Assembly (NCBI GenBank): GCA_004524445.1
Contig: SDNP01000019.1
Coordinates: 1 to 59,004, forward strand
DNA length: 59,004 nucleotides
Reading direction: 5' to 3'
DNA from: Candidatus Thorarchaeota archaeon
Lineage (GTDB): Archaea > Asgardarchaeota > Thorarchaeia > Thorarchaeales > Thorarchaeaceae
Below are positions 12,195 to 42,725 of the stretch, piece by piece. Position numbers and translations under genes: made by a program. The notes beneath the pieces were generated by a model. That model worked only from the letters and a program-made list of their open reading frames with translations. It had not been told where the DNA came from and searched no databases. Every line of letters starts with the position of its first letter. Positions within the stretch are counted from its first letter, which is position 1.

Positions 12195-13787
12195 TTGAAA
12201 GGAGTTCAAATCGTGTCTGACAAGAATGTTGAAGCAGTGCCAAGAGACCCTGTGGTTCATTCAGAAGAAGGATTATCACGATACAGAATCTCAAAACATA
12301 AACCGAAGGAGTTGCCTTACTCAACAAGCTCCATCTGCCCCACGTGTCTTCTTGATAATGAAGATATTCGTGTAATCGAGGCTCGCATATACCGTGAAGA
12401 CAATCAGATTATGATGTCAAAAGAATGTCCTGAACATGGAAAGTTCGTTGATGTCTACTGGTCCGATGCGGATATGTTTGAAAGAGTCATGAAATACTGG
12501 TATAGAACAGTGGGGTTAGACAATCCAAGGACCAAATCCAAGGAAGGGTGCCCAAAGGACTGTGGACAATGCCCAGAACATCTGGCGCACACTGCCCTGG
12601 GACTGATTGATGTTACAAATCGCTGTAACTTGAGGTGTCCGATTTGTTTTGCAAATGCCGCGGCCACCAATCGAATCTATGAACCGACAGATGAGCAAAT
12701 CAAAGAGATGTTGGCAAACCTTCGCAGTAATTTGCCAATTCCTTCACCAGCAGTCCAATTCGCCGGGGGAGAACCAACCGTCAGTGATAAGCTCCCCAAA
12801 TATGTGAGATGGGCAAATGAAATGGGCTTCGATCACATAATAGTAGCCACAAATGGTATCAGAATGGCCAATAATCCCGAATATGTCACTGAATTAAGAG
12901 AAGCGGGCATGAATACGATATACCTACAATTTGACGGGGTATCTGAGAAGCCCTATCTAGAAGCTAGAGGCAGAGACCTCCGTGATATCAAGAACGCCGC
13001 TCTCGATAGCTGTCGACGGGCGCACCTCGATGGCGTAGTGCTGGTGCCGACAATTGTCAAGGGTCTGAACGATTGCGAACTGGGCGATATTGTGAGATTT
13101 GGTATTGAAAATCGAGATATCGTGCGTTGCATCAACATCCAACCTGTTAGCATCACTGGCCGAGTTGATCATGCTGAAAGAAACAGGATGAGAATTACCA
13201 CCCCAGAGGTCATCATCAACATAGAAAAGCAAACGGAAGGAAAGATCAGTAGAGATGACTGGTATCCCGTTTCTTCTATGATGGGAGTTGGCAGAGCGCT
13301 TGGTTTACTGAAGGGCGTACCAACAGTAGAGCTGCATGCTCATTTCGCATGCGGTATGGCAACCTTTCTCTTCCTCGATGATGACGGGTCCTATATCCCC
13401 ATCACAAAGGTCGTCAATCTGGAGAAGCTATTGATGACACTCGAGGATATCTGTGACCTGTATGCTGAGAGAAAAATCCTACGCGGTCTGCGCGCCAAGC
13501 TAAAGCTATTGGGATTCACACGACATATCAAGAAGAAAAGCTACATGAAACCAATAATCACGTCATTTTTGAAGAGGGGATCATACAGTAGCCTCGCAGC
13601 ATTTATGCATCGAGTCATAATGTTGGGAGTTATGCATTTCCAAGACCCATACAACTTGGACTTGGAACGAGTGCAGCATTGTACTATAAACTACGCAACG
13701 CCTGACGGTCGAATAATCCCATTTTGCACCTATAACAATCTCCATCGGAATGGAGTCGAGGGAAAATTCAGTAGCAGGGCAGAGTAG
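12195..13787 (+). CDS. tes: radical SAM protein, tetraether lipid synthase (Tes/GDGT-MAS, MJ0619 family) homolog
   Basis: SICPTC...CPEHG, GCPKDCGQCPEH, DVTNRCNLRCPICFANA, GGEPT, HFACG, MHFQDPYNLDLER..C..YATPDGRIIPFCTYN; alternative start GTG 12213. Confidence 0.8.
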   Translation: MKGVQIVSDKNVEAVPRDPVVHSEEGLSRYRISKHKPKELPYSTSSICPTCLLDNEDIRVIEARIYREDNQIMMSKECPEHGKFVDVYWSDADMFERVMKYWYRTVGLDNPRTKSKEGCPKDCGQCPEHLAHTALGLIDVTNRCNLRCPICFANAAATNRIYEPTDEQIKEMLANLRSNLPIPSPAVQFAGGEPTVSDKLPKYVRWANEMGFDHIIVATNGIRMANNPEYVTELREAGMNTIYLQFDGVSEKPYLEARGRDLRDIKNAALDSCRRAHLDGVVLVPTIVKGLNDCELGDIVRFGIENRDIVRCINIQPVSITGRVDHAERNRMRITTPEVIINIEKQTEGKISRDDWYPVSSMMGVGRALGLLKGVPTVELHAHFACGMATFLFLDDDGSYIPITKVVNLEKLLMTLEDICDLYAERKILRGLRAKLKLLGFTRHIKKKSYMKPIITSFLKRGSYSSLAAFMHRVIMLGVMHFQDPYNLDLERVQHCTINYATPDGRIIPFCTYNNLHRNGVEGKFSSRAE

Positions 13788-13879
13788 ATGGTAGTCATCT
13801 TAAGACCAAATGTAGTTCAAGGACAACCGATACTGTTGAAAATCCTGGTTCGGAGGAATATAACTCCTAGATACATAAT

Positions 13880-13919
13880 TAGGAGTATGCAAGTTGCTTC
13901 CGCACCCTGCATGCTCCTA
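13880..13919 (-). terminator. long 3' hairpin between convergent genes
   Basis: Minus strand UAGGAGCAUGCA-GGGUGC-GGAA-GCAACU-UGCAUACUCCUA, 6 nt after the stop of the 2592-aa gene. Confidence 0.5.
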
Positions 13920-13925
13920 CGTCGT

Positions 13926-16900
13926 TTAGCCCTGTCGTCTATGCCTGATTATCAATAGTATGAAAATCACAATGACAACTGAAGCACCCACTGTTATGAT
14001 TATTCCAACAATCAGGGGGTCAAAGTCACCCGGCGTAGTTGTAGTTCCGGTAGTTGTTTCAGTATCAGTAGTTGTGTCGGCAGCTGGCAAAACCTCTACC
14101 ATTACCGTGTCTGAGATGGTGTTTTCTCCCACATCGACAACCACAATCGTGTAGTTGTAAGTCCCAGAGTCCAATCCGTCAACACTGATCGAAATTGATT
14201 CTGAGTCAGAAGATAACGAGCCATCCTCCACCAAGCTTCCGTTTCGATAGATAGCATAAGCCTCTAGATTATTATCCTCAGCATTCCATGTGATTGTATT
14301 GCCAGTTGCACCTACATAATAGGACAGGTCAGGGGGACTACTGATTGTGGGCTTAATAGTATCAATCACAGTAACTAGTACAGTATCAAATGCAATGTTG
14401 CCAAAGTCGTCCTCAGCTTGAATAGTAAAATTGTACAGTCCAATCGATAACCCATCAACGTTGATAATTACTGTTGCAGGAGTTGTACTCCATTCACCCG
14501 ACCCTATCTCTGTTCCATTTCTGTATACAGTATACGTTCCAGGATTTTCATCATTCACTGTCCAGCTTATAGAGTTGCCAGTATATCCTTCACTGTACTC
14601 AAAATCAGCTGGAGCAGATAATTCAGGGATGTCGCTATCGGTCGTAACATTGACAATGACAGTGTCTGTAACGAAGTTATTGCCCAAGTCATATGCAGCC
14701 ACCGTGTAGTTGTGAATGCCAATACCCAAATCATCTAATGAAACAGTGATGACTTCAGAAGAGCTATTCCAGTCACCTGATCGCTGGAGAATACTATCGA
14801 CATATACCTCATAACGATCTGGATATTCATCTGCTGGAGACCACTGGATGGTATAGCCTAGTTCTCCAAACATGAATGAAATGTCCTCAGGACTATTTAT
14901 GGTTGGAGGCACTTCATCAAATTCAACGATGACAAAGGCAGAGGATGAAGAGGAGTATCCTGCAGTGTCATTCAACCAGAGTGTGTAGTTATATGTGCCA
15001 ATTCCTAGCCCATCAACACTCACGGTAACACTTGAGCCATCCCAGACTCCCGATTCGACAATTGTTCCGTTTCGGTATACGAGATAGTGAGAGGGTGCGG
15101 AATCTGTTGCAGTCCATGTTAATTCGTGTCCTACAGTACCATATAGGTAAGTCAAATCATCAGTTGCTTCAATCTCTGGTCCTGGTCCAAAGATTGTGAC
15201 AAATGTCGTCATGGAACTCTGGTGCCCGTTTTGGTCAGTCGCTACTATTGTGAAATTGTATATTGCTTCATTCAGAGAAGAACAGTCAATAGATTTCATC
15301 TGAACCGAAGAAGTCCAAGGATCTGATACAACCGGAGTATTGTTGCGCCATACAGCGATTTCTTGTGGGTTGTGATCAATACATCTCCACTTAACAGACG
15401 CAGCGAGGTCACCAACAGCGAATGAAAGCTCAGTGTATCCTTGTATTATTGGCGAGTAGTCTATTCCAGAAATATCGCCCGCACTGAAGGTCCCATCTGA
15501 CTCATCCCATCCTACCATCCCTCGGTCATGAGTGACTATTTTCACCTTATACGTGTCAAGATCAGCCCAAGAGGATACATCCCAATCGTACGTGGTTAGG
15601 GTCAATCCTGTGGCAAACAGCATATAGCTTGCTCCACCATCATTCGAAACGTATACCTCGTGCAAGAAATCGGCATCCTGATTCTCAGATTGGGCATCCC
15701 AGAGAATTATGTTCGAACCGCTCCAAACCTCACCACCATTTGGACTAGTTACCTCTACATCAGGTGAGAAGAAGTTGTTGATTTCAACATCAGTCCAGCT
15801 AGATTCGAATGCCTGTCCCAAGTCATTGTACGCAGTGCCCACAACTGTCCTTGTAACATTCATTCCGAAGTCGTAGGTATCATACACAACAGAATTTGTA
15901 TCTGAAGAAGCCTTAACCCCTGCTCTTGTGTCCACTGTCAGGTCATAAGAACCGGATGCCAAATCGTAATCGAATATTCCTACAGCAAGTGTTGCTTCTG
16001 AGCCGCTGAAGTCTGCCACAAACTGCCCAGATTCCGGCTTGTTACTTGTTGACATTTGGCCTGCAAGAAGGTTATTACCGTAACTCCACGTAGAATCATC
16101 TTGCATTACGCCATCTATGCTGTACCACCATGCCATGATATCAGAGTCACCATTAGTGAAGTCGCAGAGAATATCAACAGTATCTCCACTCTTAATGCCA
16201 GTTATGTACTCCCATGCAAATTCATTAGGATCAATCATTCCACTGAAGGGATCATAGCTGGCGCTAGGTATGACAAGGGGTCCGGAGTTTTCATATAATA
16301 TACCAGTTAGGAAATTGACTTCTGTGGATGAAACTGTATATTCAGGCATATTCGGCAGAAACTCTTGAGAGAATGTCACATTGACGATGACATGATCTCC
16401 AGTGAGCGTGTCACCAGAGGTGAATGTGCGCACAGTTGGGTCAGAATTGGAGTAATATGTGTTGGAAACTGTCGGTGTAGGCACAGATTCATACCACATC
16501 GCCTTCAGCGTAATGTTCACAGGCAACTCCTGCTCGCTTGGGATGGAAGTAGGATGAAGCAGAATATAGTATGTGTCTTTGCCGTCATTTGAAACATCCA
16601 ATAAAAGAGAAGCTGAAGTTGTAGTAGAACCTGTCGTCTCTGCCAGACTTGTGCCATTCTTACCATAAACATTCATGTAAAGCGAGGTGTTTGGATCGTC
16701 CCAAAGCAAACGGAGCCCAATTAGGCTCGCAGTAGCATGTGGATTATGAATCACAAAACTCCGGAAGTCCCAATCATCTGGGTTTTCTTCCATGCAACCA
16801 AAAACAGGGGAATCATATGGCTCTAGAGTGTAGCCATAGTCTTCCACGATTACATGTTCCTCACCGGAAATCCCTGTGAGATTACCAACGAGTGTGTAGC

Positions 16901-19900
16901 TCCATGGCACCCGATTCGTATTGGCACCATCGTTTATCTCAACAAATCCCTGGTAGATACCAGCATCATCTTCTGGGACGGTCAATGTCCAATTCATGCA
17001 GTCATGACCTGCATCCCATGTGGCTGAGAACTCAGGAGCAGGTACCTCCTCCCAAAATATGACGGAACATGTGAAAGCGTTTCCAGGAGACAGGGGATCC
17101 GAATCGAAAACAGGATCATAAGCAACCATGGTCAAATCGCCATCTAGATACTGGTCGAGATTGCTCAATCCTGTTGCAAACTGCATGAGATTTTGATTAC
17201 TCGGGTCATAGGCTCGTGTTAGTAGATCAAGTTCTGCCCCTTGTAAGGAGCCACTACTCCACAAGTTTGGCATTCCATCTGCAGGATCGCTATCAGTCCA
17301 ATCAAACAGAGCCATCCAGGGATATCCCGAAGAGGCAACCGATGCGTCAGCGAATGATATTGCAATTGTAACATAGCTGTATGTGGATATGGCGTTGTCG
17401 TATGCCGTACTCCCAAGCTCATCGCGCAGATTAAACCATCCTGAGGTATTTCTGTTGGATACTGGATCCTCATAGACATAAGTAGTATCGTAGAAAATAT
17501 GTTTCTCGGCCACTTGATACCTATAGGCATTGAATGACCATCCAGTAGTATCGGAAAGCTTAGTGCCAGATGCGTCTGTCAGGACGAACTGCCTTACTGT
17601 ATTTTGCTCATTAGCAGTCAAATTTCCGAAGTAGATGGAACCGTCCGTAAAATTCCTGGGCAAGTCGGTGCCTGCGATATATGTGTCTGTTAAGCTTTCA
17701 GCGCTACTTCTTTGAGTTTCCCAACTATCCTCCAATATATCCATCATATAGTTATGGGAGTCATACGTTTCTACTATGAAACTTGTAGCCTGGGTGACAA
17801 ATTTACATGCCGCCTCGGCATTAATCAGTCCAAATCCTTGTATGGCGGGGTCATATCCCAAGTCTTCAGCTGTGTTTTGAATTATCGACTTAAGCCGATC
17901 AGGAGTCCATGATATTGATTCATTATCCAAAGTATCAATCACCAGAGCAGCAACACCCGCAGCGACGGGAGCAGACTGGCTGGTTCCACTGAAGATGGTG
18001 TAGTTTTTGACATCGCCAGGCCAGTAGGACCCGTCTCTCCAATATTGCTGTAAGTACTGCGCATAGAATGGATTAGCCGAGTAGCCTGCAGAACCAGGAG
18101 CCAAAACATCAGGCTTGGGATAACCCGAGAATGCCGGCCCTCTGCTACTGAAGCCTGCAATGCCCATGCCGTCCTGTTCGGGTCCGAAGTAGTATTCCAG
18201 ATAATGTGAGCTGGTGGATGCACCAACACTCAAAACAGATGATGCACAACCAGGAGGCCCTATAGTCATATACCCTGAACCTTCATTACCCGCTGAGAAC
18301 ACATGTAACATACCTGGATATGCAGCATCCAAATACTGGGGGGCAGAGAGGATCTCCCAAGTGAGGCTCATGTATGTAAACTGACTGCTAGGTTCAGTAA
18401 CCCAACCCCATGAATTGGTGGTCAGATTAGCCTGATGGTTTCCTGTGTAATAGAACTCTTGAGTTGCGTCATTGTAGTCAAATCCACATGCCCATAAATA
18501 TCCGCCAATGTCAGAACCAGAGGTAATGACAGATATTGATAGAAGCTTCGATTGATTCGCGATACCGGGCATCTTGAAGTATGACTGATTATTGGTATCG
18601 AAATAGTCGTACTGTCCTCGGGCGGCGACATGAGCAGCTGTCGCAGTGCCGTGAGTGCCCTGATCAAAATACAGTGCAATAGCATTACAGTCGCTTCGGA
18701 ATCCCTGAAAGATTGCTTCATCGGAGAAGAAGCCGGGATCCATCGTCCAGCATAAAGCCCCTAAACTCAAGTCGTCTATGCCATCAGAGGTAAAATCATG
18801 AGCAACAATCGGGTTACTCAAGTCATAGACCTCTGTTTCATAATCATCAGTGAAGTTCCAGTCAAAAATCGAGATGATTTCGTTTCTGTCGGAGGTTGAA
18901 TTCAGGTCCAAGTCCTCATAGTACATGGCACCATTCCACATCGCCGTCCAGCCTTCTGCAGCCTCCCAGTCAGTAATGACATGGTACTGACCATCGACAG
19001 CGGATTTGTATACGATTACTGGTGCGAAAATCTTAGCATACGGACTCTGTCTCTGTTGGTAAATCCAACCGAAGTGGAAGTCGTTCTCTGCGATTGAGGG
19101 ATTTGGTATCTCCCAATCCTTCCAAATCTCATTATAAACGAATTCTGAAGCATTGTCTATTCCCCATGCCCATGCGTAATATCCAATGAATCCCACAACA
19201 CTGCCATATGGATATCCATCTCCATAGGGTGGAAGCAGCCCCATAAGATGTCGAGTGCTACCCTGCATATTGACTACTGGGTCCCACCCAGTGACATTCA
19301 GATAGAATTTGCCATTCTCCTCATAAGTTAGGACATTTCCTGAACTGACCCAAGACTCTGGGTCAGCTAGATTTGATGAATTACCAATTGAATTGCTCAG
19401 AACCAGTGAGTAACCCGTGGGATCATAACTATCCGGATGATAGGCATCCTGAAGGTCTGGCTGACCGAAATCGCAGCCCGTATCCAAATGACCTACTGTT
19501 ACACCCTCGCCCGTGAACTGCGATGCCGTGGAACCAGTGGAGCCAACAATAGTCCTGAATTCTGCCATATCGGGTGTGGCTGAAACCGGCAAATTGGAGT
19601 CAGACATATCACGTGAGAGGTCGTCTCTTCGAGGGACCAAATACTCATCAGCATCAATGAAGGTTACACCTGTTGTTTCCGAAAGCTCGGAGATAGTGGT
19701 TCGTGATGGAGCCAAAGCCTTAGTGATTCGAAAAGCTCTGAGATCAACAGACCATTGTACATCCACGATTGAGCGAATTTCGTTGTAGTCAGACCAAGGT
19801 GCTGAGTATATGATGATACTCGGCATATTTTGTTGTACCACCATATTTGGTTTCAGCTCACCTGTGTCCATCCATCTGAAAAGAGATTCATCAATTTCGG

Positions 19901-21704
19901 TAGAGAATTCGTTTTTCGCCCACTCCGTCTGTACATCCTGAACAGCCTGTCCCAATGAATCCATTTCGGCAGTGGGTAATTCAGTTGTACTTGAATGAGT
20001 ATTTTCGACCGATTCACTTACGATGGCATTTCCAAAGGGAAGCAAGAAATAGCCGTCATTTCGTGTCAGCTCGGTAAACTCACCAGCAATATACTCGCTG
20101 ACATAGAATGGACCGCTTGTGATGAGTTCGTTGTAAGTGGGGTTGAAGGTTTGGTAATCAATTCCTAACCACTGTTGCTTTGGAAGGACGGGAATATCCG
20201 CTATTGAGGACAAATGCCAATATGACTCAGAAATGAACTCGATAATGAAAGTATAATCATCAGGAGCAAAAGCAGCATACAGTTCATCATTGTAGGTGGC
20301 TGCCCAAGGATGCTCAGATTCTCGCAAGTAGTTGAATGTGAATGCAACATCCTGAGCAGTCAATGGTGTACCATCTGTCCAACTAGCATTGTTACCGATG
20401 CTGAATGTGATTCTGGTATGTTCCGCTGGAACAGCGGGATTATCTGAGGACGTTTCTATTGCATAGTTCTCAGCAATGAAAGGCACAAGATAGCCCTGAT
20501 TGTTATAACGCACAAGTGGCTCGTAGAGCTCATCTAGGACATTCATAGTGTATTTCGAAGATGTTGTTAATATATTGAAAGTATCAAGGTCAAGGGGATT
20601 GCTCCATCGGAACGTACCACCTTCAGGACCGCCTGCACTCTCTTTCAAGTGAATCTTTTGATTTGTCCACCAAGATGCAACACCGTCAGTCATGTCATTT
20701 ACGAAGCCCTCAAATTGGTCTGTTCGATATGCTGAAAGATAGGTGTTTGCATAGCAAATTATCATCGGACTCTGGTATACCCAGATTTTTTGCATTTCTA
20801 TAGCAGCCTCATAGACATCGTCATAACTAGTGGAGTAGAGCAGCTGATTTCTCCACGAATCATATGATGCATTCTGGAAATTCGGAAAGTTATAGTATGG
20901 TTCATCTGCATATTCAGACCAATATTGGTAAGCAAGCCAATCGACATCGAAATCTGCGAAAGACTCGCCTAAGAAGGCCATATCGTAGTCTTGATGGAAG
21001 TAAAGCTTATTCAAGTATACGTAGAAATCTGTGGGCACAGATGTTGCGTTAATACCAAGTGATCGGAGGGTTGCTGCAACCTCATCACAAACTTCTATTG
21101 CGACGGATGATGATTGGGCAGCCTCGATAATTACATCGAATACAGTGCCATCAGGTGCTTCTCGAAAGTCATCATCATTCACATCTAAAAAGCCTGCAGC
21201 CTCAAGTGTTTGGTTAGCAAGGACGAGGTTGGATTCATAGTAGGTATAGGGTAGCTGCCCTTCAATGGAAAACGGGTTAACTTGCGGCACAACGCTATCC
21301 TGAGGCACAGAAAACCCGTCAAAGATATCATTAGAGATTGCTTGCTTATCAAGGGCAAATGCCAAAGCCCTCCGAAATGCAGTATAGTTGAAAGGATATT
21401 TCGCGCAGTTGATAGTCACGTATCCGTAACCATTCCTTGGAGTTTCCGCGACTTCTATGTTTTCTGCTTGATTCAAAGTTTCATAGAACTGTGGATCAAC
21501 ATAATCCCCAATCAAATCAATTTCGTCGTTCTGCAGCGCCAAGACTTGCTGATCATCGCCTTCTATAACATGATAGATAAGCTTGTCAACATATGGTCCT
21601 TCACCGCTAGTTATGGAGTTGGCATTAGCTGAGGGTGTAGATATTGCCCCCAGAATTAGAACACCCACTATTAGAATACAGATAGATACCTTTGTAATCC
21701 TCAA
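13926..21704 (-). CDS. giant surface protein: signal peptide + family-5 solute-binding domain + S8 subtilase + Ig-like repeats + Thr-rich linker + C-terminal TM anchor
   Basis: SBP5 motifs (YPFNYTAFRRALAFALDK, WTDGTPLTAQDV, SGPF); S8 motifs LDTG (D741), HGT (H1018), SAGNEG (N1140), GTSQSAP (S1242); TTTDTETTTGTTTT; TM followed by RHRRQG. Confidence 0.9.
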   Translation of the reverse strand: MRITKVSICILIVGVLILGAISTPSANANSITSGEGPYVDKLIYHVIEGDDQQVLALQNDEIDLIGDYVDPQFYETLNQAENIEVAETPRNGYGYVTINCAKYPFNYTAFRRALAFALDKQAISNDIFDGFSVPQDSVVPQVNPFSIEGQLPYTYYESNLVLANQTLEAAGFLDVNDDDFREAPDGTVFDVIIEAAQSSSVAIEVCDEVAATLRSLGINATSVPTDFYVYLNKLYFHQDYDMAFLGESFADFDVDWLAYQYWSEYADEPYYNFPNFQNASYDSWRNQLLYSTSYDDVYEAAIEMQKIWVYQSPMIICYANTYLSAYRTDQFEGFVNDMTDGVASWWTNQKIHLKESAGGPEGGTFRWSNPLDLDTFNILTTSSKYTMNVLDELYEPLVRYNNQGYLVPFIAENYAIETSSDNPAVPAEHTRITFSIGNNASWTDGTPLTAQDVAFTFNYLRESEHPWAATYNDELYAAFAPDDYTFIIEFISESYWHLSSIADIPVLPKQQWLGIDYQTFNPTYNELITSGPFYVSEYIAGEFTELTRNDGYFLLPFGNAIVSESVENTHSSTTELPTAEMDSLGQAVQDVQTEWAKNEFSTEIDESLFRWMDTGELKPNMVVQQNMPSIIIYSAPWSDYNEIRSIVDVQWSVDLRAFRITKALAPSRTTISELSETTGVTFIDADEYLVPRRDDLSRDMSDSNLPVSATPDMAEFRTIVGSTGSTASQFTGEGVTVGHLDTGCDFGQPDLQDAYHPDSYDPTGYSLVLSNSIGNSSNLADPESWVSSGNVLTYEENGKFYLNVTGWDPVVNMQGSTRHLMGLLPPYGDGYPYGSVVGFIGYYAWAWGIDNASEFVYNEIWKDWEIPNPSIAENDFHFGWIYQQRQSPYAKIFAPVIVYKSAVDGQYHVITDWEAAEGWTAMWNGAMYYEDLDLNSTSDRNEIISIFDWNFTDDYETEVYDLSNPIVAHDFTSDGIDDLSLGALCWTMDPGFFSDEAIFQGFRSDCNAIALYFDQGTHGTATAAHVAARGQYDYFDTNNQSYFKMPGIANQSKLLSISVITSGSDIGGYLWACGFDYNDATQEFYYTGNHQANLTTNSWGWVTEPSSQFTYMSLTWEILSAPQYLDAAYPGMLHVFSAGNEGSGYMTIGPPGCASSVLSVGASTSSHYLEYYFGPEQDGMGIAGFSSRGPAFSGYPKPDVLAPGSAGYSANPFYAQYLQQYWRDGSYWPGDVKNYTIFSGTSQSAPVAAGVAALVIDTLDNESISWTPDRLKSIIQNTAEDLGYDPAIQGFGLINAEAACKFVTQATSFIVETYDSHNYMMDILEDSWETQRSSAESLTDTYIAGTDLPRNFTDGSIYFGNLTANEQNTVRQFVLTDASGTKLSDTTGWSFNAYRYQVAEKHIFYDTTYVYEDPVSNRNTSGWFNLRDELGSTAYDNAISTYSYVTIAISFADASVASSGYPWMALFDWTDSDPADGMPNLWSSGSLQGAELDLLTRAYDPSNQNLMQFATGLSNLDQYLDGDLTMVAYDPVFDSDPLSPGNAFTCSVIFWEEVPAPEFSATWDAGHDCMNWTLTVPEDDAGIYQGFVEINDGANTNRVPWSYTLVGNLTGISGEEHVIVEDYGYTLEPYDSPVFGCMEENPDDWDFRSFVIHNPHATASLIGLRLLWDDPNTSLYMNVYGKNGTSLAETTGSTTTSASLLLDVSNDGKDTYYILLHPTSIPSEQELPVNITLKAMWYESVPTPTVSNTYYSNSDPTVRTFTSGDTLTGDHVIVNVTFSQEFLPNMPEYTVSSTEVNFLTGILYENSGPLVIPSASYDPFSGMIDPNEFAWEYITGIKSGDTVDILCDFTNGDSDIMAWWYSIDGVMQDDSTWSYGNNLLAGQMSTSNKPESGQFVADFSGSEATLAVGIFDYDLASGSYDLTVDTRAGVKASSDTNSVVYDTYDFGMNVTRTVVGTAYNDLGQAFESSWTDVEINNFFSPDVEVTSPNGGEVWSGSNIILWDAQSENQDADFLHEVYVSNDGGASYMLFATGLTLTTYDWDVSSWADLDTYKVKIVTHDRGMVGWDESDGTFSAGDISGIDYSPIIQGYTELSFAVGDLAASVKWRCIDHNPQEIAVWRNNTPVVSDPWTSSVQMKSIDCSSLNEAIYNFTIVATDQNGHQSSMTTFVTIFGPGPEIEATDDLTYLYGTVGHELTWTATDSAPSHYLVYRNGTIVESGVWDGSSVTVSVDGLGIGTYNYTLWLNDTAGYSSSSSAFVIVEFDEVPPTINSPEDISFMFGELGYTIQWSPADEYPDRYEVYVDSILQRSGDWNSSSEVITVSLDDLGIGIHNYTVAAYDLGNNFVTDTVIVNVTTDSDIPELSAPADFEYSEGYTGNSISWTVNDENPGTYTVYRNGTEIGSGEWSTTPATVIINVDGLSIGLYNFTIQAEDDFGNIAFDTVLVTVIDTIKPTISSPPDLSYYVGATGNTITWNAEDNNLEAYAIYRNGSLVEDGSLSSDSESISISVDGLDSGTYNYTIVVVDVGENTISDTVMVEVLPAADTTTDTETTTGTTTTPGDFDPLIVGIIITVGASVVIVIFILLIIRHRRQG
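14089..15458 (-). repeat. five tandem ~90-aa Ig-like protein repeats
   Basis: Repeating P-x-I-x2-P-x-D...G..I.W...D..P..Y...NGT...G.W...V.VDGL..G.YN.T....D..GN...DTV.V.V unit; boundaries approximate. Confidence 0.75.
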
Positions 21705-21870
21705 TGTCCAGTAACCTTCCTACAAAGCGATTGACTGCAGCCTACCAAATCTGCCTAATAAATGTTCAGAGAAAAATAGTGAGCGGCATGCGACGCATCA
21801 GAAGTGAAGATGGGGTCACAGATTCAATCCAGGGAGTTTTGGGGTTTGTTCCAACATAAAATGAACCTGC

Positions 21871-24800
21871 TCATCTTCTCCTAATGAGAACCAGCAATAC
21901 TAGAATGATACCAATGGAGCCAATCACTAGAACGATACCGAAACTACTGATAAGAAATGCCAACAATGGATCGATTTCTCCGCCGCTTGATTCGGTTACT
22001 GTGACAAGAACTGAATCTGATGCTGTGTTGCCGGATGAATCATAGATAACTATGGATACCTCATAAACACCAACATCAAAACCATCAAGCGATAAGCTAA
22101 TCTCATCTGAGGACTCGTTCCATAAACCAACAGCATGTAGGCTTCCGTTGAGATAGATTTCATATCGAAATGGATGCAGGTCAAATGCTTCCCAGATTAT
22201 CGCATGACCCTCTTGCCCTTGTTCAATGTTGATATCTTGAGGGGAGCTAACCACTGGCGCAGTATTATCTGACACAATAACTAACACAGAATCACTAGCT
22301 TGATTGCCTGCAGTATCATTCACCCTTATGGTATAATTGTACGTCCCCATCATTGTTCCATCAAGATTCACTGCTATCTTTTCAGAGGTCGAATTCCATA
22401 ATCCATGCATGGTGGCGGATCCATTAACCAGAATGATGAAGTGAGAAGGATTGCTATCTTGAGGGTCCCATACTATTTCATAGCCTGAGAAACCTTCTAT
22501 CATAAAAACATCCGGAGGATGGTCAATGTGAGGAGCCAAGCCCACAGTAACCGTCACCCAAACGGTATCAGAACATTTCTGACCGATTGTGTCGTTCAGA
22601 GTTATTGTCATATTATGGGTGCCAACTGGTAGCCCGTCTACAACAACATCGATAGTCTCGCCACTCGAGTTCCATACCCCAGATGCATACAAGGTTCCGT
22701 TCCTGAGAACGTGGTAGCCCGCAGGGTCAGAATCATATCCTTTCCAAGTTATCTTATTGCCAGAATCACCAAGTTCGTATTCGATATCCTCAGGAGAGTT
22801 TGAAGAAGGGGCCAGATTCTCTTCTTCAGGTACTGACGCGTTTCTCATCCCGAAGTCTATTGCTTGAGCGACTAGATTATACCCATCTAGAATCACATCA
22901 TAATATAGCTCCGTGCACATAGGCCGATAGTCGCCATAAGGAGACGCACCGGATGTGACAATCACTCCTGACCCGTCTAATCCCGCCTTGAGTTCTATAC
23001 AAGCCGCGACAAATGAACCCGTTTGTCCATCCAAATGAGCTTTGGGAGGTATGAGATCGGAGTCTGTAATCGTGGCAGCAGGACTGTAGTAAAGCAACGG
23101 ATAGACATTAGATATTGATTGCTGCTCTAAATCGATAGTTCCCGAATCTGGGTTTGCTGAGGTACTCCCATAGAGACAAGTGGGTCCATGCATTAAAACA
23201 TTGGAAACATTCTCAACAATTTCAGACACGACTGCATCATTGGAAGTGATATTTGCCACAGCACGATAAGCTGCCGCGGCATTTGACTCTGGGTCCTCAA
23301 TTGCTGTAGGTTCTCCATAAACATGTGAGCCAACGGATTCAAGAATAGTTGTCATGTTACCATGAATATACTGGGTATCGCCGAAGTCATTGTCGAAAGC
23401 AACCCACAGGAACCGGTTGCCCTGCATGAACCAATTCTCAATAGCAGTTAACTCCGAATTAGTAAAACCATTGATAGCACCGTATATTGATGATAGGACC
23501 AATCCACCTGCATCTGAGAGAATGCTTTCATTTATGCCGCCCCTTGCCCAGATCACCTCATATCCCAAAGAACTCAGATTAGCTTCCAGTTGATAGTCGG
23601 TATCACCAAGGTTAGTGTTTTCTTGCCCATGTGAGTAATCTAATACTATTTTGTTTGAATGCTCAACCGGAGGAAGTGATTCCAAGACGGTCACGATAAC
23701 CTCGTCTCTTGCGGTATGACCATCGAGGTCTCTGACTTCCAGCGTGAAATTGTAAGTGCCAAGAGGTAATCCATCGATATCAACAAAGATGGATCCACCG
23801 CTCCATGATCCACTCTGATAGATTGTGCCATTCTTATACACACTATAGTATTCTGGATTATCATCGGATGTTGACCATACAAGTTCATTGCCAGTAGTAC
23901 CGGTAAATATGATCAGGTCTTGGTGTGGCTGAATCTCAGGCAATGTGGGCCCAGAAGGATAATCCGGTCGAGAATAGAAATAGCTTGGATTATAGGTGAG
24001 TTCTGTAAATTCTCCCGCGACATATTCAGAAACATTGTAAGGACCGGAGGTCACCATTTCATCATTGGGAGGAATCGGATTCCAGGTGTTCCAGTTTTCG
24101 AGGCCTATCTCCTGGAAGATATGCTTAGGAATAATCGGCTTGTAGCCAATTGTGTGGAGATGCCAGTAAGATTCTGTGTTGAACTCCATGACTGCGGTGT
24201 ATGTTGTCGGCGCATAGGCAGCAGAGAGCTCTGTAAGGTCAGTGCCATACGGATTCCCGGGCGAATCGCGATAGTAATTCATTGAAAACGCCACATCGTT
24301 CGCGGTCAATGGTGTGCCATCAGTCCAAGTAGCATTCTGAATTACTTCAAATGTGAAGCGGGTGTATCCTTCAGACACCGCCGGATTGTCTGCATGAGTT
24401 TCAGTTGTTACGGATTCCGCCAGCCAAAGCACATCAGCTCCACTCTCATCAATTCTGATTAAACTGTCATAGAGCATTTGGAGAACATTCATGCTCGCTG
24501 ACGAAGAGGTGACCATGAAGTTGAACGAGTCAACATCCAGTGGATTTGCCCACCTTAGAGTACCTCCGATAGGGCCACCATATTCGCTTTTTAGACGCGT
24601 CCTGTAATTTGTCCAATAGCTGGGTATGCCGTCAGAAACATCATTTACGAATCCCTCGAACTTATCAGTGCGATAGGCAGTGTGGAGCATGCTCTCGTAA
24701 CAAACAATGATGGGAGACTGATAGACTAGTATGCGCTGCATCTCAATGGCAGCTTCGTACACTTCCTCGAATGTTGCTCCATGTAACAGCTGATCCCTCC

Positions 24801-25647
24801 AGCTATCATAAGTCGCATTTCTGAAATTGGGGAAATTCCAGTAGTTTTCATCAGCATATTCTGACCAATATTCATAGGCAAGCCAATCAACATCGAAGTC
24901 TGAAAAACTCTGACCAAGAAAGACAATATCATAGTCGCCATGGAAATACAGTCGATTCAGATATTCATAGAAGTCTGTTGGCACGGATGCCGCATCGATG
25001 TTCAAAGATGACAACGCAGAGGCAACATAACTACCGACATCGATTGCAACATTCGAAGACTGAGCAACCTCGACTATTACATCGAAATCAGTGCCATCAG
25101 GAGCCTCCCTGATTCCATCACCGTCCCAATCCTCGAAACCAGCCGTATCAAGAATATAGTTACCGAGTACAACATTTGACTCATTGTACGAGTATGAAAG
25201 CAGCCCCTCTATTGAGAAAGGATTGATGTAAGGTACGACACTATCTAATGGTGTGGCTAATCCATTCCAAATGTCGTCACATATTGCATCCTTATCCAGA
25301 GCAAAAGCCAGCGCCCTTCTGAATGAAGTCAAATTGTACGGGTATTTATCGCAATTTATCGTAATATAGCCATAGCCATTTCTCCAACGATTGGCAACAG
25401 CAATATTCTCTGCAGCTTCAAGTGTTGCGATGTAGGCAGGATCTATTTGGGCTCCAATAAGATCTATCTCGCTATTTTGCAGAGCCAAGACTTGCTGATC
25501 ACTGCTTTCTATCACGTGATAGACTATTTTGTCAAGATATCCACCCGTTCTATCCATTTCTACAAACGAATTCGCTTCGATATTATTTACACTCAGGAAT
25601 AAGGCGAGAAGAACAGCACAGAGAATTACCCCTTTTCGTGACTTCAC
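21871..25647 (-). CDS. surface protein: signal peptide + family-5 solute-binding domain + Ig-like repeat + GIFT/DUF4350-like domain + three Ig-like repeats + TM anchor
   Basis: N-terminal ~530 aa clearly paralogous to the neighbouring giant gene (QQVLALQN.EIDLIG, DFDVDWLAY.YWSEYADE); middle domain starts KIVLDYSHGQ; C-terminal TM followed by RRR. Confidence 0.88.
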   Translation of the reverse strand: MKSRKGVILCAVLLALFLSVNNIEANSFVEMDRTGGYLDKIVYHVIESSDQQVLALQNSEIDLIGAQIDPAYIATLEAAENIAVANRWRNGYGYITINCDKYPYNLTSFRRALAFALDKDAICDDIWNGLATPLDSVVPYINPFSIEGLLSYSYNESNVVLGNYILDTAGFEDWDGDGIREAPDGTDFDVIVEVAQSSNVAIDVGSYVASALSSLNIDAASVPTDFYEYLNRLYFHGDYDIVFLGQSFSDFDVDWLAYEYWSEYADENYWNFPNFRNATYDSWRDQLLHGATFEEVYEAAIEMQRILVYQSPIIVCYESMLHTAYRTDKFEGFVNDVSDGIPSYWTNYRTRLKSEYGGPIGGTLRWANPLDVDSFNFMVTSSSASMNVLQMLYDSLIRIDESGADVLWLAESVTTETHADNPAVSEGYTRFTFEVIQNATWTDGTPLTANDVAFSMNYYRDSPGNPYGTDLTELSAAYAPTTYTAVMEFNTESYWHLHTIGYKPIIPKHIFQEIGLENWNTWNPIPPNDEMVTSGPYNVSEYVAGEFTELTYNPSYFYSRPDYPSGPTLPEIQPHQDLIIFTGTTGNELVWSTSDDNPEYYSVYKNGTIYQSGSWSGGSIFVDIDGLPLGTYNFTLEVRDLDGHTARDEVIVTVLESLPPVEHSNKIVLDYSHGQENTNLGDTDYQLEANLSSLGYEVIWARGGINESILSDAGGLVLSSIYGAINGFTNSELTAIENWFMQGNRFLWVAFDNDFGDTQYIHGNMTTILESVGSHVYGEPTAIEDPESNAAAAYRAVANITSNDAVVSEIVENVSNVLMHGPTCLYGSTSANPDSGTIDLEQQSISNVYPLLYYSPAATITDSDLIPPKAHLDGQTGSFVAACIELKAGLDGSGVIVTSGASPYGDYRPMCTELYYDVILDGYNLVAQAIDFGMRNASVPEEENLAPSSNSPEDIEYELGDSGNKITWKGYDSDPAGYHVLRNGTLYASGVWNSSGETIDVVVDGLPVGTHNMTITLNDTIGQKCSDTVWVTVTVGLAPHIDHPPDVFMIEGFSGYEIVWDPQDSNPSHFIILVNGSATMHGLWNSTSEKIAVNLDGTMMGTYNYTIRVNDTAGNQASDSVLVIVSDNTAPVVSSPQDINIEQGQEGHAIIWEAFDLHPFRYEIYLNGSLHAVGLWNESSDEISLSLDGFDVGVYEVSIVIYDSSGNTASDSVLVTVTESSGGEIDPLLAFLISSFGIVLVIGSIGIILVLLVLIRRR
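21995..22813 (-). repeat. three tandem Ig-like repeats (a fourth at about 23680-23944)
   Basis: Same unit as in the 2592-aa protein (APSSNSPEDIEY..., APHIDHPPDV..., APVVSSPQDI...); boundaries approximate. Confidence 0.7.
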
Positions 25648-25817
25648 AAGCAGTCAACCCCCAATTAGATAACCACAATTCTCTTCGCTTCAAGTCTAAT
25701 AAGCATTGCTGGACAATCTCTCGGATTCTAGTTATGCATACCAATGTTTCTTGCATCAAACGACCTATATGTTTCAGACCAACAGACTTATGATTTAGAC
25801 TCGGTTTATTAACTATC

Positions 25818-27257
25818 ATGAAGAATTATGATTTGCTAGTTGTAGGCTCAGGTGCAGGATCCAATATTGCGGCTTCAGCTTACGAGCAAGGGATGAAAGT
25901 GGCAATCGTAGACAATGGAAGATTTGGTGGCACCTGTCTCAATAGGGGCTGCATTCCTACGAAGATTTTGACATATGTTGCTGATACCATCATGAGTGTC
26001 GAACATTCAGGTCAAATCAATCTTGAAGCTGAGGTAAAAGAAGTAGACTTCAAGGGTCTCATGGAGAGAATGAGAAGAGAAACTTGGCATGAGGCTGAAG
26101 AGATCGCAGAAAGCATTAGCACAGTAGACACGTATGATTTCTACAATGATACTGGGGAGTTTATTGATGATTATACCATGAGAGTGGCTGGAGAAGAGAT
26201 CAAGGGAGAGTACGTTATTTTGGCGTCTGGAGCACGGCCTCTCATTCCCCCAATAAATGGCTTGGAAGATGTCGAGTATTTGACCAACAAAACCATCCTG
26301 GAACTAGATGAGAAACCTAAGTCCCTGATTATTGTCGGCGGAGGGTATATTGCCGCTGAATTTGGACACTTCTTCTCAGCCATCGGTACAGAAGTTACAA
26401 TCTTGGGAAGAAACGAGTATCTTGTTCCGGATGAAGATAATGATGTATCTGAGCTGCTCAAGAAACACTTGGACAGTCGTATGGGTGTGTATACAAGTCA
26501 TGAGGTTCGGAGTGTTCGACAGGAAGGAGATGAAAAGGTTGCTGTTGCAAAGAACACTGAAACGGGGGATGAAACCGAGTTCAAAGCAAAACATATTCTT
26601 GTCGCAACAGGAAGAAGGTCAAATTCAGACATTCTGAAACCTGAGGAAACAGGTGTGGACACAGATGATAGAGGCTGGATAATCACAGACAAGCATTTCA
26701 GGACCTCAAAAGAACGTATCTTCGCATTTGGAGATGCTCTTGGAAAGCATATGTTCCGACATGTGGCTAATGAGCAGTCTCAGATTGTGTATTATAATTT
26801 GATGAGAACAATCGATGCTGAGGAAAAGGACGGGGAGCCGGAACTCTTTGGCATGAGCTATCATGCAATTCCACGCGCCGTCTTCTCACATCCTCAGATT
26901 GCAACGGTGGGTATGACTCTGGATGCAGCTAAGAATACGGACCGAAGGCTGTTGGTAGGAAGATCTGAGTACACCGGTGTTGCCAAAGGGGCAGCCATGG
27001 GAAATCCTGATGGCTTTGTGAGAGTTATTTGCGATGCTGAAGACAGGACGATTCTAGGAGCATCCATTATTGGTCCTCACGCACCCATTCTCATTCAGGA
27101 GATCACAAATCTCATGAACACGTCAGAGAGAACATACATTCCAATGTTTGATTCTATTCATATTCATCCTGCGTTGCCAGAGGTTGTGCAGCGAGCTTTC
27201 GGAAGTCTTGCTCCCATAGATGCAGAACATACTCATCATCACCACAATCATGAGTAG
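25818..27257 (+). CDS. class I pyridine nucleotide-disulfide oxidoreductase (dihydrolipoyl dehydrogenase family, mycothione-reductase-like), His-rich tail
   Basis: GSGAG, GGTCLNRGCIPTK redox disulfide, GGGYIAAEF, ATGRRSN, HPALPE His-Glu pair, tail HTHHHHNHE. Confidence 0.88.
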   Translation: MKNYDLLVVGSGAGSNIAASAYEQGMKVAIVDNGRFGGTCLNRGCIPTKILTYVADTIMSVEHSGQINLEAEVKEVDFKGLMERMRRETWHEAEEIAESISTVDTYDFYNDTGEFIDDYTMRVAGEEIKGEYVILASGARPLIPPINGLEDVEYLTNKTILELDEKPKSLIIVGGGYIAAEFGHFFSAIGTEVTILGRNEYLVPDEDNDVSELLKKHLDSRMGVYTSHEVRSVRQEGDEKVAVAKNTETGDETEFKAKHILVATGRRSNSDILKPEETGVDTDDRGWIITDKHFRTSKERIFAFGDALGKHMFRHVANEQSQIVYYNLMRTIDAEEKDGEPELFGMSYHAIPRAVFSHPQIATVGMTLDAAKNTDRRLLVGRSEYTGVAKGAAMGNPDGFVRVICDAEDRTILGASIIGPHAPILIQEITNLMNTSERTYIPMFDSIHIHPALPEVVQRAFGSLAPIDAEHTHHHHNHE

Positions 27258-27944: not shown

Positions 27945-29009
27945 CTATGTGAATAAGCTCACGAATGCAGGTATAAGCAGCATAAGTGCTGGAACAGCTA
28001 TAATGGTGGTCCAAGTTATAGCCAAAGCAGTACCTTTACGGTCTATGCCATAAGGTATTAGGAACATGTTTGTGCTGGTTATAGGCATTACGGAATTCAG
28101 GGCTATTACAGCGAACCATTCTTTGGGAATGAGGTTCATATACATCAGAGACCCGAAGACCAGGACAATGGCAAGAGGGGTTGCAATAAGGGTGGTAAAG
28201 AAGGCGTTCCTTGCCACACTCCAATGGAACTCCCTTTCCGATGGTGATCCTCCGGTCAGCGAAAACAGTTTTTTCATCTCGGTCAGTTTTAGGTCTTTTG
28301 GATCGATACCGGCCCCAACGTAGTAGAGGCCTGCAGGAATGGTTAGAGCTGTTATGAAATGAAGGATTGTTCCAGCATCACCAAGGTCGACTACGGTTAT
28401 ACCGGTACTCCTGTGGATAATCACTGCCGCAATGACGAAGGAAAGCAGATACCATGGGTATAGCCTCAAAAACCCAGGCAGCGTGGTAACTTTTTCCCGC
28501 CCCTGGTTTTCTCGATTGTGCATCATGGAGAGCATATAAGGTATTATGGCAAACAGTCCGATCCCAACAATGCTGATGTATATGGCTGCTGGCACTCTCC
28601 ATTCCTGGATACTCAACATTATGCCTCCTACAAAAGCGGCGCTGCGGCCTTGATTGGTGAGAACGGTCTTAATGAAGGTCCGCCGCTCGACTCCAGTCAG
28701 CCCGATTTTTCTGACCTCTAGATAACCAAATAGATAGGAAATCAGATACATGAAGGTCAGCACAACGAAGGTTAAGGAGGCAAACCTAAGCTCCTCACTG
28801 CCAAAACCTATGTTTAGAAATATCCTGAACAGCAGGAGCGGAATGAATACGAACAACAACAGGAATCCGACTTTTTTCATGCCTGCGTCGACACGGTCCT
28901 TTCCCAGCCACTTAGAAAGAGCAAGGGTCATCAGGAAGCCTACCACTATCCAAGGTAGCGTCCATAGTCCGCTTATGTATGGAATCACCTTCTCTATCGT
29001 ATCTATCAT
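27945..29009 (-). CDS. AEC (auxin efflux carrier/malate permease)-like multi-pass transporter
   Basis: About 10 TM segments, FVFIPLLLF, LTIPAGLYYVG, SVMPITST; ATG 29009 has GAGGTGA upstream. Confidence 0.7.
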   Translation of the reverse strand: MIDTIEKVIPYISGLWTLPWIVVGFLMTLALSKWLGKDRVDAGMKKVGFLLLFVFIPLLLFRIFLNIGFGSEELRFASLTFVVLTFMYLISYLFGYLEVRKIGLTGVERRTFIKTVLTNQGRSAAFVGGIMLSIQEWRVPAAIYISIVGIGLFAIIPYMLSMMHNRENQGREKVTTLPGFLRLYPWYLLSFVIAAVIIHRSTGITVVDLGDAGTILHFITALTIPAGLYYVGAGIDPKDLKLTEMKKLFSLTGGSPSEREFHWSVARNAFFTTLIATPLAIVLVFGSLMYMNLIPKEWFAVIALNSVMPITSTNMFLIPYGIDRKGTALAITWTTIIAVPALMLLIPAFVSLFT

Positions 29010-29624
29010 TCTTATCACCTCTAAGCTATGTGCTTGAACGCACAAAGGGCTCGCAGCAATCCACGACAAAGCACCGCCAAACGATACTAGAAATCACCGA
29101 TGCCCAATTGTCGGACTCGAACACAATGTTTTCGGAATTGTCCTCTGATATATTATATTTCCGTAAGAGAACCCTCAGCTCGCATACCTAGGTTATCTGA
29201 TGTCAGAATTTCGGGAAAGGTAGGGACCAATTCATGTCTGTGCTCATTGCTATACCAACTATGATGAGTAATACTATCATAACCATGTGTTTGGACCTAG
29301 AGAGCCCTGTCGTTCCATTCAAGGCAATGGTTTGCAATGGTAAAGATTACAAATATTGGCTGTTCTCACATCCGACTATACCTGCTATGGATCATTTGCT
29401 AATGTGGTCACAGTCGTTTGACTAATTGGAATACGTACCTCTATCATTGTAGTTTCAATACCGCAAGCCCAGCCATTATTTTGGTATTGCTGAATGATGG
29501 GACTTGATTCTTCCACTTCTGTAACTCAAGATGAACTCAAATAAGCGTAATTTTTGTCATTCATCAGATTTCTATGACAAATCTTTTTAGATTTGGTGGC
29601 TTATAGATAAAAGGGATACCATAA

Positions 29625-41816: not shown

Positions 41817-42725
41817 ATGAAAATTGATGGACAGAATATTGACATATCAAATCGTGAAAAGGTATTCTTTCCGGACTCGGGTTTTACGAAAGGTGATGTA
41901 ATAGATTATTACATGAGCGTCGCAGACAACATATTGCCTCACCTGAAGAATCATGGAATAAGCATGCAGCGGTTTCCAGATGGCCTTGCCGGAGAGGGGT
42001 TTTACAATAAAGATGCACCCGATTATTTTCCAGATTGGCTTGAAACCATCGAATTCCCGAAAGAGGACGAGGGCTCGTTCAATGCGCCGGTGGTTCAGAG
42101 TAAGGCGGCACTAGCATATCTTGTAAATCAAGCGGTCTTGACTCCACATCTCTACTTATCGCGCATCGATGACTTGCAGTTTCCAGATAGACTTGTGTTT
42201 GATTTAGATCCTCCGAAAGATACAAAGGAATTCGATGCGGTGCGAGATGCGGCTCTAGACATACGAGATATTCTTGAAGAATTGGATCTCAAGGGATGGA
42301 TTCAGACAACTGGCTCAATGGGTTTTCACATTCATGTTCCAATTCTTCGTGAATTCGAATTCGATGAAGTCCGACAATTTGCTCGTGACGTAGCTTTCTT
42401 CGTAACAAGCAAACATGAAGAGAGGTACACTATCAAACAACGCGAGGAGAAACGCAACGGGCGTATCTTCATTGATTATTTCCGTAATTCATATGGAGCC
42501 ACATCTGTTGCGCCATATGCAGTGCGCGCTCGGTCCGGTGCACCTGTTGCAGCCCCAGTCGACTGGACCGAGGTCAAAGAAGCAGCAACACCCCGAGACT
42601 GGAGCATTGAGAATATGCCAAATCGCATGGCCCAGAAAGAAGACCCATGGGCGGATATGGCACGGCATGCACGTTCGATTAAGAAACGACGTCAGAAACT
42701 AACCGATATGCTAGATCAAAAATAA
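41817..42725 (+). CDS. stand-alone LigD polymerase domain (AEP primase-polymerase)
   Basis: SNREKVFFP...TKGD...YY, RFPDG, FDLDPP (DxD), TTGSMGFH, IFIDY.RN..GAT.VAPY..RA...APV..P..W; no ligase or PE domain. Confidence 0.92.
   Translation: MKIDGQNIDISNREKVFFPDSGFTKGDVIDYYMSVADNILPHLKNHGISMQRFPDGLAGEGFYNKDAPDYFPDWLETIEFPKEDEGSFNAPVVQSKAALAYLVNQAVLTPHLYLSRIDDLQFPDRLVFDLDPPKDTKEFDAVRDAALDIRDILEELDLKGWIQTTGSMGFHIHVPILREFEFDEVRQFARDVAFFVTSKHEERYTIKQREEKRNGRIFIDYFRNSYGATSVAPYAVRARSGAPVAAPVDWTEVKEAATPRDWSIENMPNRMAQKEDPWADMARHARSIKKRRQKLTDMLDQK

Follow-up and report, generated by a model that had tools for sequence, protein, structure and literature searches.

The fusion gene and its surroundings

The stretch of DNA analysed here (the window) comprises 59,004 nucleotides of contig SDNP01000019.1 of a member of Candidatus Thorarchaeota, a group of uncultured sediment archaea. 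Positions 13926-21704 of the minus strand are occupied by a single frame of 2592 amino acids (aa) with a TTG start, in which a family 5 solute-binding protein (SBP), here the head, is joined to a subtilase (family S8); all parts of the gene given below lie on the same strand. The frame matches the Pfam families SBP_bac_5 (PF00496; 180.5 bits against a curated cut-off of 32.4, E 7e-53), which places the head in SBP family 5 (cluster C), and Peptidase_S8 (114.8 bits, aa 732-1292, E 6e-33). Its only hydrophobic segments are found at aa ~1-28 and ~2560-2590.

The chain opens with a signal peptide (aa 1-29; 21618-21704), the putative cleavage site of which, behind a terminal A-x-A motif, was assigned by eye. 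The SBP follows in two parts, namely aa 36-355 (20640-21599), which correspond to the C-terminal ~60% of canonical OppA/DppA including domain III, and aa 360-553 (20046-20627), equivalent to the canonical N-terminal ~40% including domain II, which is remodelled in the fused copies. A poorly conserved linker (aa 554-585; 19950-20045; ~20% identity among the fusions over aa 554-601) leads to the propeptide (aa ~586-712; 19569-19949), which consists of a helical extension, an I9-type core (aa ~627-685) and a low-confidence loop (aa 701-712) that is the probable self-cleavage region. The S8 catalytic domain (aa ~713-1310; 17775-19568) contains the catalytic Asp741 (19482-19484), His1018 (18651-18653) and Ser1242 (17979-17981) and the oxyanion Asn1140 (18285-18287). 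Between Asp and His lies a folded insertion of ~240 aa (aa 766-1005; 18690-19409) that is common to the stand-alone paralogs and for which an atlas comparison gives an FG-GAP lead (score 0.89, low recognition). The protease is followed by beta-sandwich domains (aa 1311-1760; 16425-17774), the last of which resembles PPC/collagen-binding domains (Z about 10), and by further beta domains (aa 1761-2084; 15453-16424), PPC/Fn3-like as a lead only (score 0.8), that also occur in the stand-alone protease and in protease-less SBP proteins. Five Ig/PKD-like repeats of ~92 aa each (aa 2085-2543; 14076-15452) form a stalk, which is connected through a Thr-rich linker (14025-14075), with a stretch of 60% Ser/Thr ahead of the anchor, to a transmembrane helix (aa 2563-2586), a basic tail and the stop codon (13926-14018). 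Some 2000 residues separate the head from the membrane. The reading frame and the hydrophobicity profile agree with the first-pass annotation in the single frame, signal peptide, five Ig-like repeats, Thr-rich linker, membrane helix and basic tail.

The co-oriented gene upstream (21871-25647, minus strand) encodes a permuted SBP with about seven Ig repeats and an anchor, without a protease; such an SBP-Ig gene lies directly upstream of the fusion in three genomes (this one and those of loci L140 and L141). A recent origin of the fusion from this neighbor was considered and rejected, the SBP of the neighbor not being the nearest relative of the head. On the other side, a radical SAM gene with an HMPTM-type zinc ribbon (12195-13787, plus strand) converges on the fusion. 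Elsewhere in the window are a stand-alone LigD primase-polymerase domain (41817-42725, plus strand; E 2e-87) and a 374-aa frame without a Pfam or NCBIfam match (27945-29069, minus strand). A promoter and terminator scan at the fusion, using a bacterial model on archaeal DNA, returned chance-level hits only.

The host assembly (2.8 Mb, 44.6% GC) is a metagenome-assembled genome with paralogous repeats and a contamination of 5.4%, so that an assembly chimera or a read-through of two genes had to be considered. A Logan contig from the probable source sample, that is, the same data in a different assembly, covers positions 12500-26100 with 5 differences and zero gaps and includes both the fusion gene and its upstream neighbor. 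A DNA search across the SBP-protease junction gave short matches only; at the protein level, both domains are present in the same order in 10 clusters (identity 47-67%, leaving aside the one that contains the query), and P0141 together with the genome loci extends the SBP-S8 fusions to about 14 divergent Thorarchaeota sequences from different samples. Named homologs of the host proteins likewise come mostly from Candidatus Thorarchaeota. The same junction in these independent homologs refutes an artefact, the probability of which is negligible, and both the clusters with the two domains and the second assembly come out in favor of a genuine gene.

Among 37 genomes (the host, G000, and 36 of the same family), the fusion was detected in eight (G000, G006 with a frameshift, G007, G008 twice, G019, G026, G028 and G029), which is a lower bound because the genomes are incomplete. 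The usual form of the same protease is an anchored stand-alone protein of ~1600 aa, which is visibly kept in six of the eight fusion-bearing genomes, including G000 (split over contigs C31 and C7). The fusion is accordingly an accessory, dispensable extra copy of the protease, and the possibility that orthologs are split, named at the outset as a potential refutation, holds for the protease as it usually occurs and fails for the fusion, which comes in addition.

Several of the loci have peculiarities of their own. In G008, the second, tandem fusion (L036:3-5228, minus strand) carries other residues in place of the catalytic-set His, Asn and Ser, and its frame is open to the contig end. Another fusion (L037:239-16649) is split by a frameshift right after the catalytic Asp, through sequencing error or as a pseudogene, and its downstream frame of 4666 aa comprises a very long Ig stalk as well as beta-helix domains. 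Two contig-end fragments of G022 (L123:5795-7369 and L084:3-2945) cluster with the heads and tails of the fusions; they are probably the pieces of a further fusion broken up in assembly, which here too has an SBP-Ig gene upstream. The stand-alone protease is usually arranged head-to-head with a second, divergent, anchored S8 protein of ~980 aa a few kb away (L050-L081).

A circularly permuted binding protein and its possible ligands

The head is a complete family 5 SBP, as the first-pass annotation had it, but not in canonical order, a point that the annotation missed: the two halves are swapped, with Pfam positions 143-364 coming first (aa 34-265) and positions 11-185 second. Solved family 5 proteins align in the same swapped order by both sequence and structure, and a de-permuted profile matches DppA/OppA as a single stretch (for DppA, 75.9 vs 57.8 bits). 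The structural model (pLDDT 92) retrieves 49 family 5 representatives at Z 18-28, of which only the in-order part aligns; in the comparison with Bacillus subtilis AppA (1xoc; Z 27.9, rmsd 6.7, 313 aligned), model residues 3-326 correspond to AppA 207-520. Among solved chains, none was found to align in order across the two permuted halves, a weak indication that none exists, and no solved structure of a permuted family 5 SBP was found. The head shares PF00496 and the fold with AppA, a Vibrio chito-oligosaccharide binder (6lzq), Escherichia coli DppA/OppA and OppA of Thermococcus kodakarensis (7fi3) but differs from them in its permuted order, 15-24% identity, fusion to an enzyme and lack of an adjacent permease.

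Permuted SBPs constitute a family of over 100 clusters at 50% identity, and matches across the permutation joint extend to at least two other Asgard families. Of the family 5 genes in the host genome, about 12 have the permuted order and a single one the canonical order. Because the SBP is permuted, its new C-terminus is free for stalks and fusions, and a C-terminal anchor is present in 108 of the 137 permuted representatives. In seven proteins (P0124, P0125, P0136, P0138, P0139, P0142 and P0195) the permuted SBP is joined straight to the module of aa 1761-2095 without a protease. In P0143 and P0145 there comes after it an unnamed domain that contains four to five membrane helices, possibly a sensor or a fused part of a transporter. 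P0152 and P0031 are giant proteins with several SBP5 domains, and P0152 mixes permuted and canonical-order copies, which is relevant to the origin of the permutation.

No permease or ATPase genes adjoin the fusion in the window or on the contig, and none were seen beside the other fusions examined. The cognate SBP of a conserved Thorarchaeota Opp-type operon is nevertheless of the permuted form and lies beside permease genes in 12 relatives, the operon OppB of which is 75-91% identical to the OppB of host contig C26, linking the host's oppBCDF genes on C26 to the permuted family through these orthologs. In this operon, oppC-like genes often come as a pair, and the ATPase genes are often transcribed divergently (L120-L130). 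The gene context suggests that the permutation is older than the fusion and compatible with transport.

Chito-oligosaccharides, peptides, mannosides and nickel are all represented among the ligands of the nearest solved relatives of the head, which score alike. Peptide termini are anchored by D408 and R355 in DppA (PMC12136057) and by D419 and R413 in OppA (PMC3173086); these Asp and Arg residues are absent from the fused head, where they are aligned to A250, A195 and F244, and even from the operon SBPs, in an alignment at about 20% identity in which a shift by one residue is possible. Neither these residues nor the relatives uphold the designation 'peptide-binding' given in the first-pass annotation. 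Peptides appear the most likely class of ligand by context, given the Opp/Dpp-like permease and the protease partner.

Fused and operon SBPs are about 58% identical on average. Of 290 positions that are invariant in the operon SBPs, the fusions have lost 19 that plain stalked SBPs retain, with 14 of the losses in domain II (14 of the 61 operon-invariant positions there) and none in domain III (0/130); these counts reflect shared ancestry, and a p-value would not be meaningful as a test. The lost set includes the loop opposite OppA Tyr109 in the alignment and the position that corresponds to His161, and the remodelled positions as a whole include those aligned with OppA Val34, Tyr109 and His161, of which Val34 and Tyr109 are binding-site residues in OppA (PMC9967938). 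The change in domain II may affect either the pocket or the side turned towards the permease, and it may amount to a loss of the normal hand-off to the permease. As judged by dN/dS (0.11 for the SBP vs 0.13 for the protease, in the one close pair that is unsaturated and informative) and by the identity within the main fusion clade (59-62% for the heads vs 68% for the catalytic core), the fused heads are under purifying selection and are not decaying.

The protease, its propeptide and the history of the pairing

All four residues of the catalytic set predicted in the first-pass annotation are present, in order and in subtilase motifs (family S8A), and the set is intact in 11 of the 12 scorable fusions; one G008 copy lacks three of the four. 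In a confident model of aa 590-1775 (pLDDT 88.7, pTM 0.91), residues ~602-700 fold into a small alpha/beta domain that is docked on the catalytic part. Superposed jointly with the latter, it matches the propeptides of ProN-Tk-SP (372 residues aligned from aa 602, at Z 36.4 and rmsd 3.1), of pro-subtilisin E in its unprocessed form (324 aligned, at Z 34.8 and rmsd 2.5) and of the unprocessed subtilase precursor 2zwo; residue 1 of subtilisin aligns at about aa 710. By fold, the propeptide-like region noted at the outset is an I9-type propeptide, although a Pfam search for I9 in the fusion gave no match. Its core residues are the same as in the stand-alone paralogs.

In subtilase precursors the propeptide bond is cut by the enzyme itself, after which the propeptide is released and degraded (PMC10580911), and the Lactococcus lactis proteinase PrtP likewise cleaves its own (PMC7783315). 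Because the SBP lies N-terminal to a propeptide docked as in pro-subtilisins, maturation should sever it from the protease; such severing, predicted from the model, would be the main constraint on any mechanism.

The enzyme appears pyrolysin-like in design because of the 240-aa insertion and the C-terminal beta domains, one of them PPC-like, and it shares with pyrolysins and cell-envelope proteinases the large catalytic insertion, the long C-terminal extension and a surface anchor, here a membrane helix. Its best structural matches (Z 36-42) belong to the pyrolysin group (Tk-SP 3afg, Vpr 8jmw, KP-43, CspB and TPP II), which, including archaeal pyrolysin and STABLE (PMC9549277), has a propeptide, a catalytic insertion and C-terminal beta-sandwich/PPC-like domains as the fusion does; the likeness is a structural one, at about 27-31% identity over the aligned core, and an SBP is missing from all the solved matches. 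With the stand-alone S8 proteins, identity over the protease core reaches 54-67%. A glycosylation sequon at aa 781, absent from all 13 fusions and present in 51 of the 76 stand-alone copies (three independent pairs, p 0.25), gives a weak hint that surface use is altered in the fusions. An Asn-x-Ser at aa 1050, considered as another fusion-specific feature, was rejected since it occurs in eight stand-alone copies.

The two parents of the fusion are represented by the Thorarchaeota stand-alone S8 protein (about 1600 aa) and the operon-linked permuted SBP, encoded by separate genes at other loci. The phylogenies of the two parts, obtained in quick, midpoint-rooted searches with P0144 excluded from later alignments and phylogenies, differ. 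The fused heads, 13 in all, make up a single clade (SH-aLRT 96) together with one contig-truncated ORF, and their monophyly is not rejected on 73 rows, whereas the fusion proteases belong to two deep lineages and appear in three or four places, with monophyly rejected at p-AU 1e-57 (48 rows, long and gappy ones left out). Four protease-less proteins that combine a head with the module of aa 1761-2095 branch beside the fused heads in both trees. Because the heads form one clade and the proteases do not, the pairing of head and protease seems to have been kept through protease exchange; the simplest reading is a single specialised head lineage that swapped or lost its protease cassette on several occasions. 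An ancestral propeptide kept in the distant fusions was also considered and set aside, monophyly being weakly rejected (p 0.03-0.04). In one pair (L031 vs L151), synonymous divergence of the SBP and propeptide (0.16-0.23) is about twice that of the protease (0.09), which suggests recombination inside the fusion gene.

Possible joint function of head and protease

The closest functional parallel is the PrtP-Opp system of L. lactis (PMC7783315), in which a large, anchored S8 protease with a signal peptide, a self-cleaved propeptide, beta domains and a stalk delivers products that enter the cell via an OppA-type protein. PrtP and OppA are encoded by separate genes, PrtP is anchored in the wall and OppA is unpermuted, whereas the fusion is membrane-anchored and permuted; by analogy, it would work like PrtP and OppA joined in one gene, yet it is not a member of the DppA/OppA group. 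A partial literature search for SBP-subtilase fusions, Asgard SBP-subtilisin proteins and permuted family 5 SBPs yielded no relevant papers, in line with the first-pass statement that no protein of this architecture is known to have been characterised.

The best reading, though a tentative one, is that a binder and a cutter are deployed together as parts of an extra membrane-anchored, pyrolysin-like S8 protease, the pro-region of which gained a whole permuted family 5 binding protein. After export and signal removal, the chain would be displayed on its Ig stalk; the I9 propeptide would fold the enzyme and then, as in subtilases generally, be cut near aa 700-713, ending the covalent link at maturation. 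The SBP-propeptide piece could remain beside the mature protease without a covalent tie, at least for a time, holding peptides or polypeptide stretches for the enzyme, and the products might pass to the shared OppBCDF permease encoded elsewhere in the genome, the weakest step of the scheme. The gain would be a binder and a cutter at one spot for protein scavenging and not a rigid single-chain machine. The intact catalytic sets, the propeptide fold, the confident SBP fold, selection, the single head clade, the operon role of the SBP family, the intact domain III and the anchoring habit count for this reading; the variable linker, missing anchor residues, losses in domain II, dispensability and the dead-protease and protease-less versions count against it. 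Retained propeptides, moreover, inhibit their own enzymes (PMC10580911), so that keeping the piece in place is at odds with an active enzyme unless the SBP attaches at another site.

What maturation does to the chain bears on the proposal of the first-pass annotation that proteolysis is physically coupled to product capture, taken here as a permanent covalent chain, with the precursor active unsevered and the SBP catching peptides and bending to the permease. Both halves and their order are conserved, and long Ig stalks that carry plain SBPs are encoded in the same genomes; however, an uncut I9 propeptide normally fills the active site (PMC10580911; also PrtP, PMC7783315), the model docks the propeptide as in pro-subtilisins, and the head would have to bridge about 2000 residues to the membrane, which makes this very improbable. 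Release by autoprocessing, offered in the same annotation as an option, must instead form part of any model since the SBP is N-terminal to the propeptide, the cut itself being predicted. Were the head set free altogether, the gene would encode a self-processing polyprotein that yields a mobile envelope binder, one-to-one with the protease, ferrying products to OppBCDF. Removal of signal and propeptide does leave the head anchorless, the domain III face is conserved with the operon SBP, and about 12 permuted SBP genes share two permease sets in the genome. Yet a freely released head would be unusual because 108/137 representatives are C-terminally anchored, domain II departs from the operon type and there is no sign here of an enclosing layer to hold a free protein, so that this outcome is quite unlikely.

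The departure of the head from transport SBPs counts for a ligand-gated zymogen, in which the SBP is a sensor within the pro-region and its closure on a ligand speeds or blocks cleavage or release of the propeptide, switching on the extra protease only near food. The SBP directly precedes the inhibitory propeptide, and a constitutive stand-alone copy is kept. Gating is unlikely all the same: ~30-50 variable, Pro/Ser/Thr-rich residues between the modules are poorly suited to pass on a conformational change, the propeptide core is that of the stand-alone copies, and no precedent was found. Finally, domain shuffling among surface genes could have put two useful modules on one signal peptide and stalk, each working alone. 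Permuted SBPs do occur on many stalks and with many partners, their presence is patchy, and triad-dead, frameshifted and protease-less versions are known; that a single SBP lineage with its own sequence signature was fused repeatedly with different proteases, and that the long SBP proteins checked have no enzyme partner other than S8, renders the absence of any coupling decidedly improbable. A bolder view, rather unlikely at present, takes the dedicated permuted-SBP lineage for a portable head of surface proteases that docks on the protease and either gates its activation by ligand or feeds it substrate.

The architecture described in the first-pass annotation is thus real, recurrent and, by the sequence comparisons above, under selection; no permease is encoded in the window. 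A single gene here unites both halves of the PrtP-Opp strategy and offers a testable handle on how the cell keeps the products of extracellular digestion. The fusion also exposes a natural circular permutation of family 5 SBPs, spread over Thorarchaeota and at least two other Asgard families, and poses the question of what use is made of a conserved 520-residue binding domain placed ahead of a disposable propeptide. If the portable head were borne out, it would constitute a protease controlled by a binding protein, without a described counterpart.
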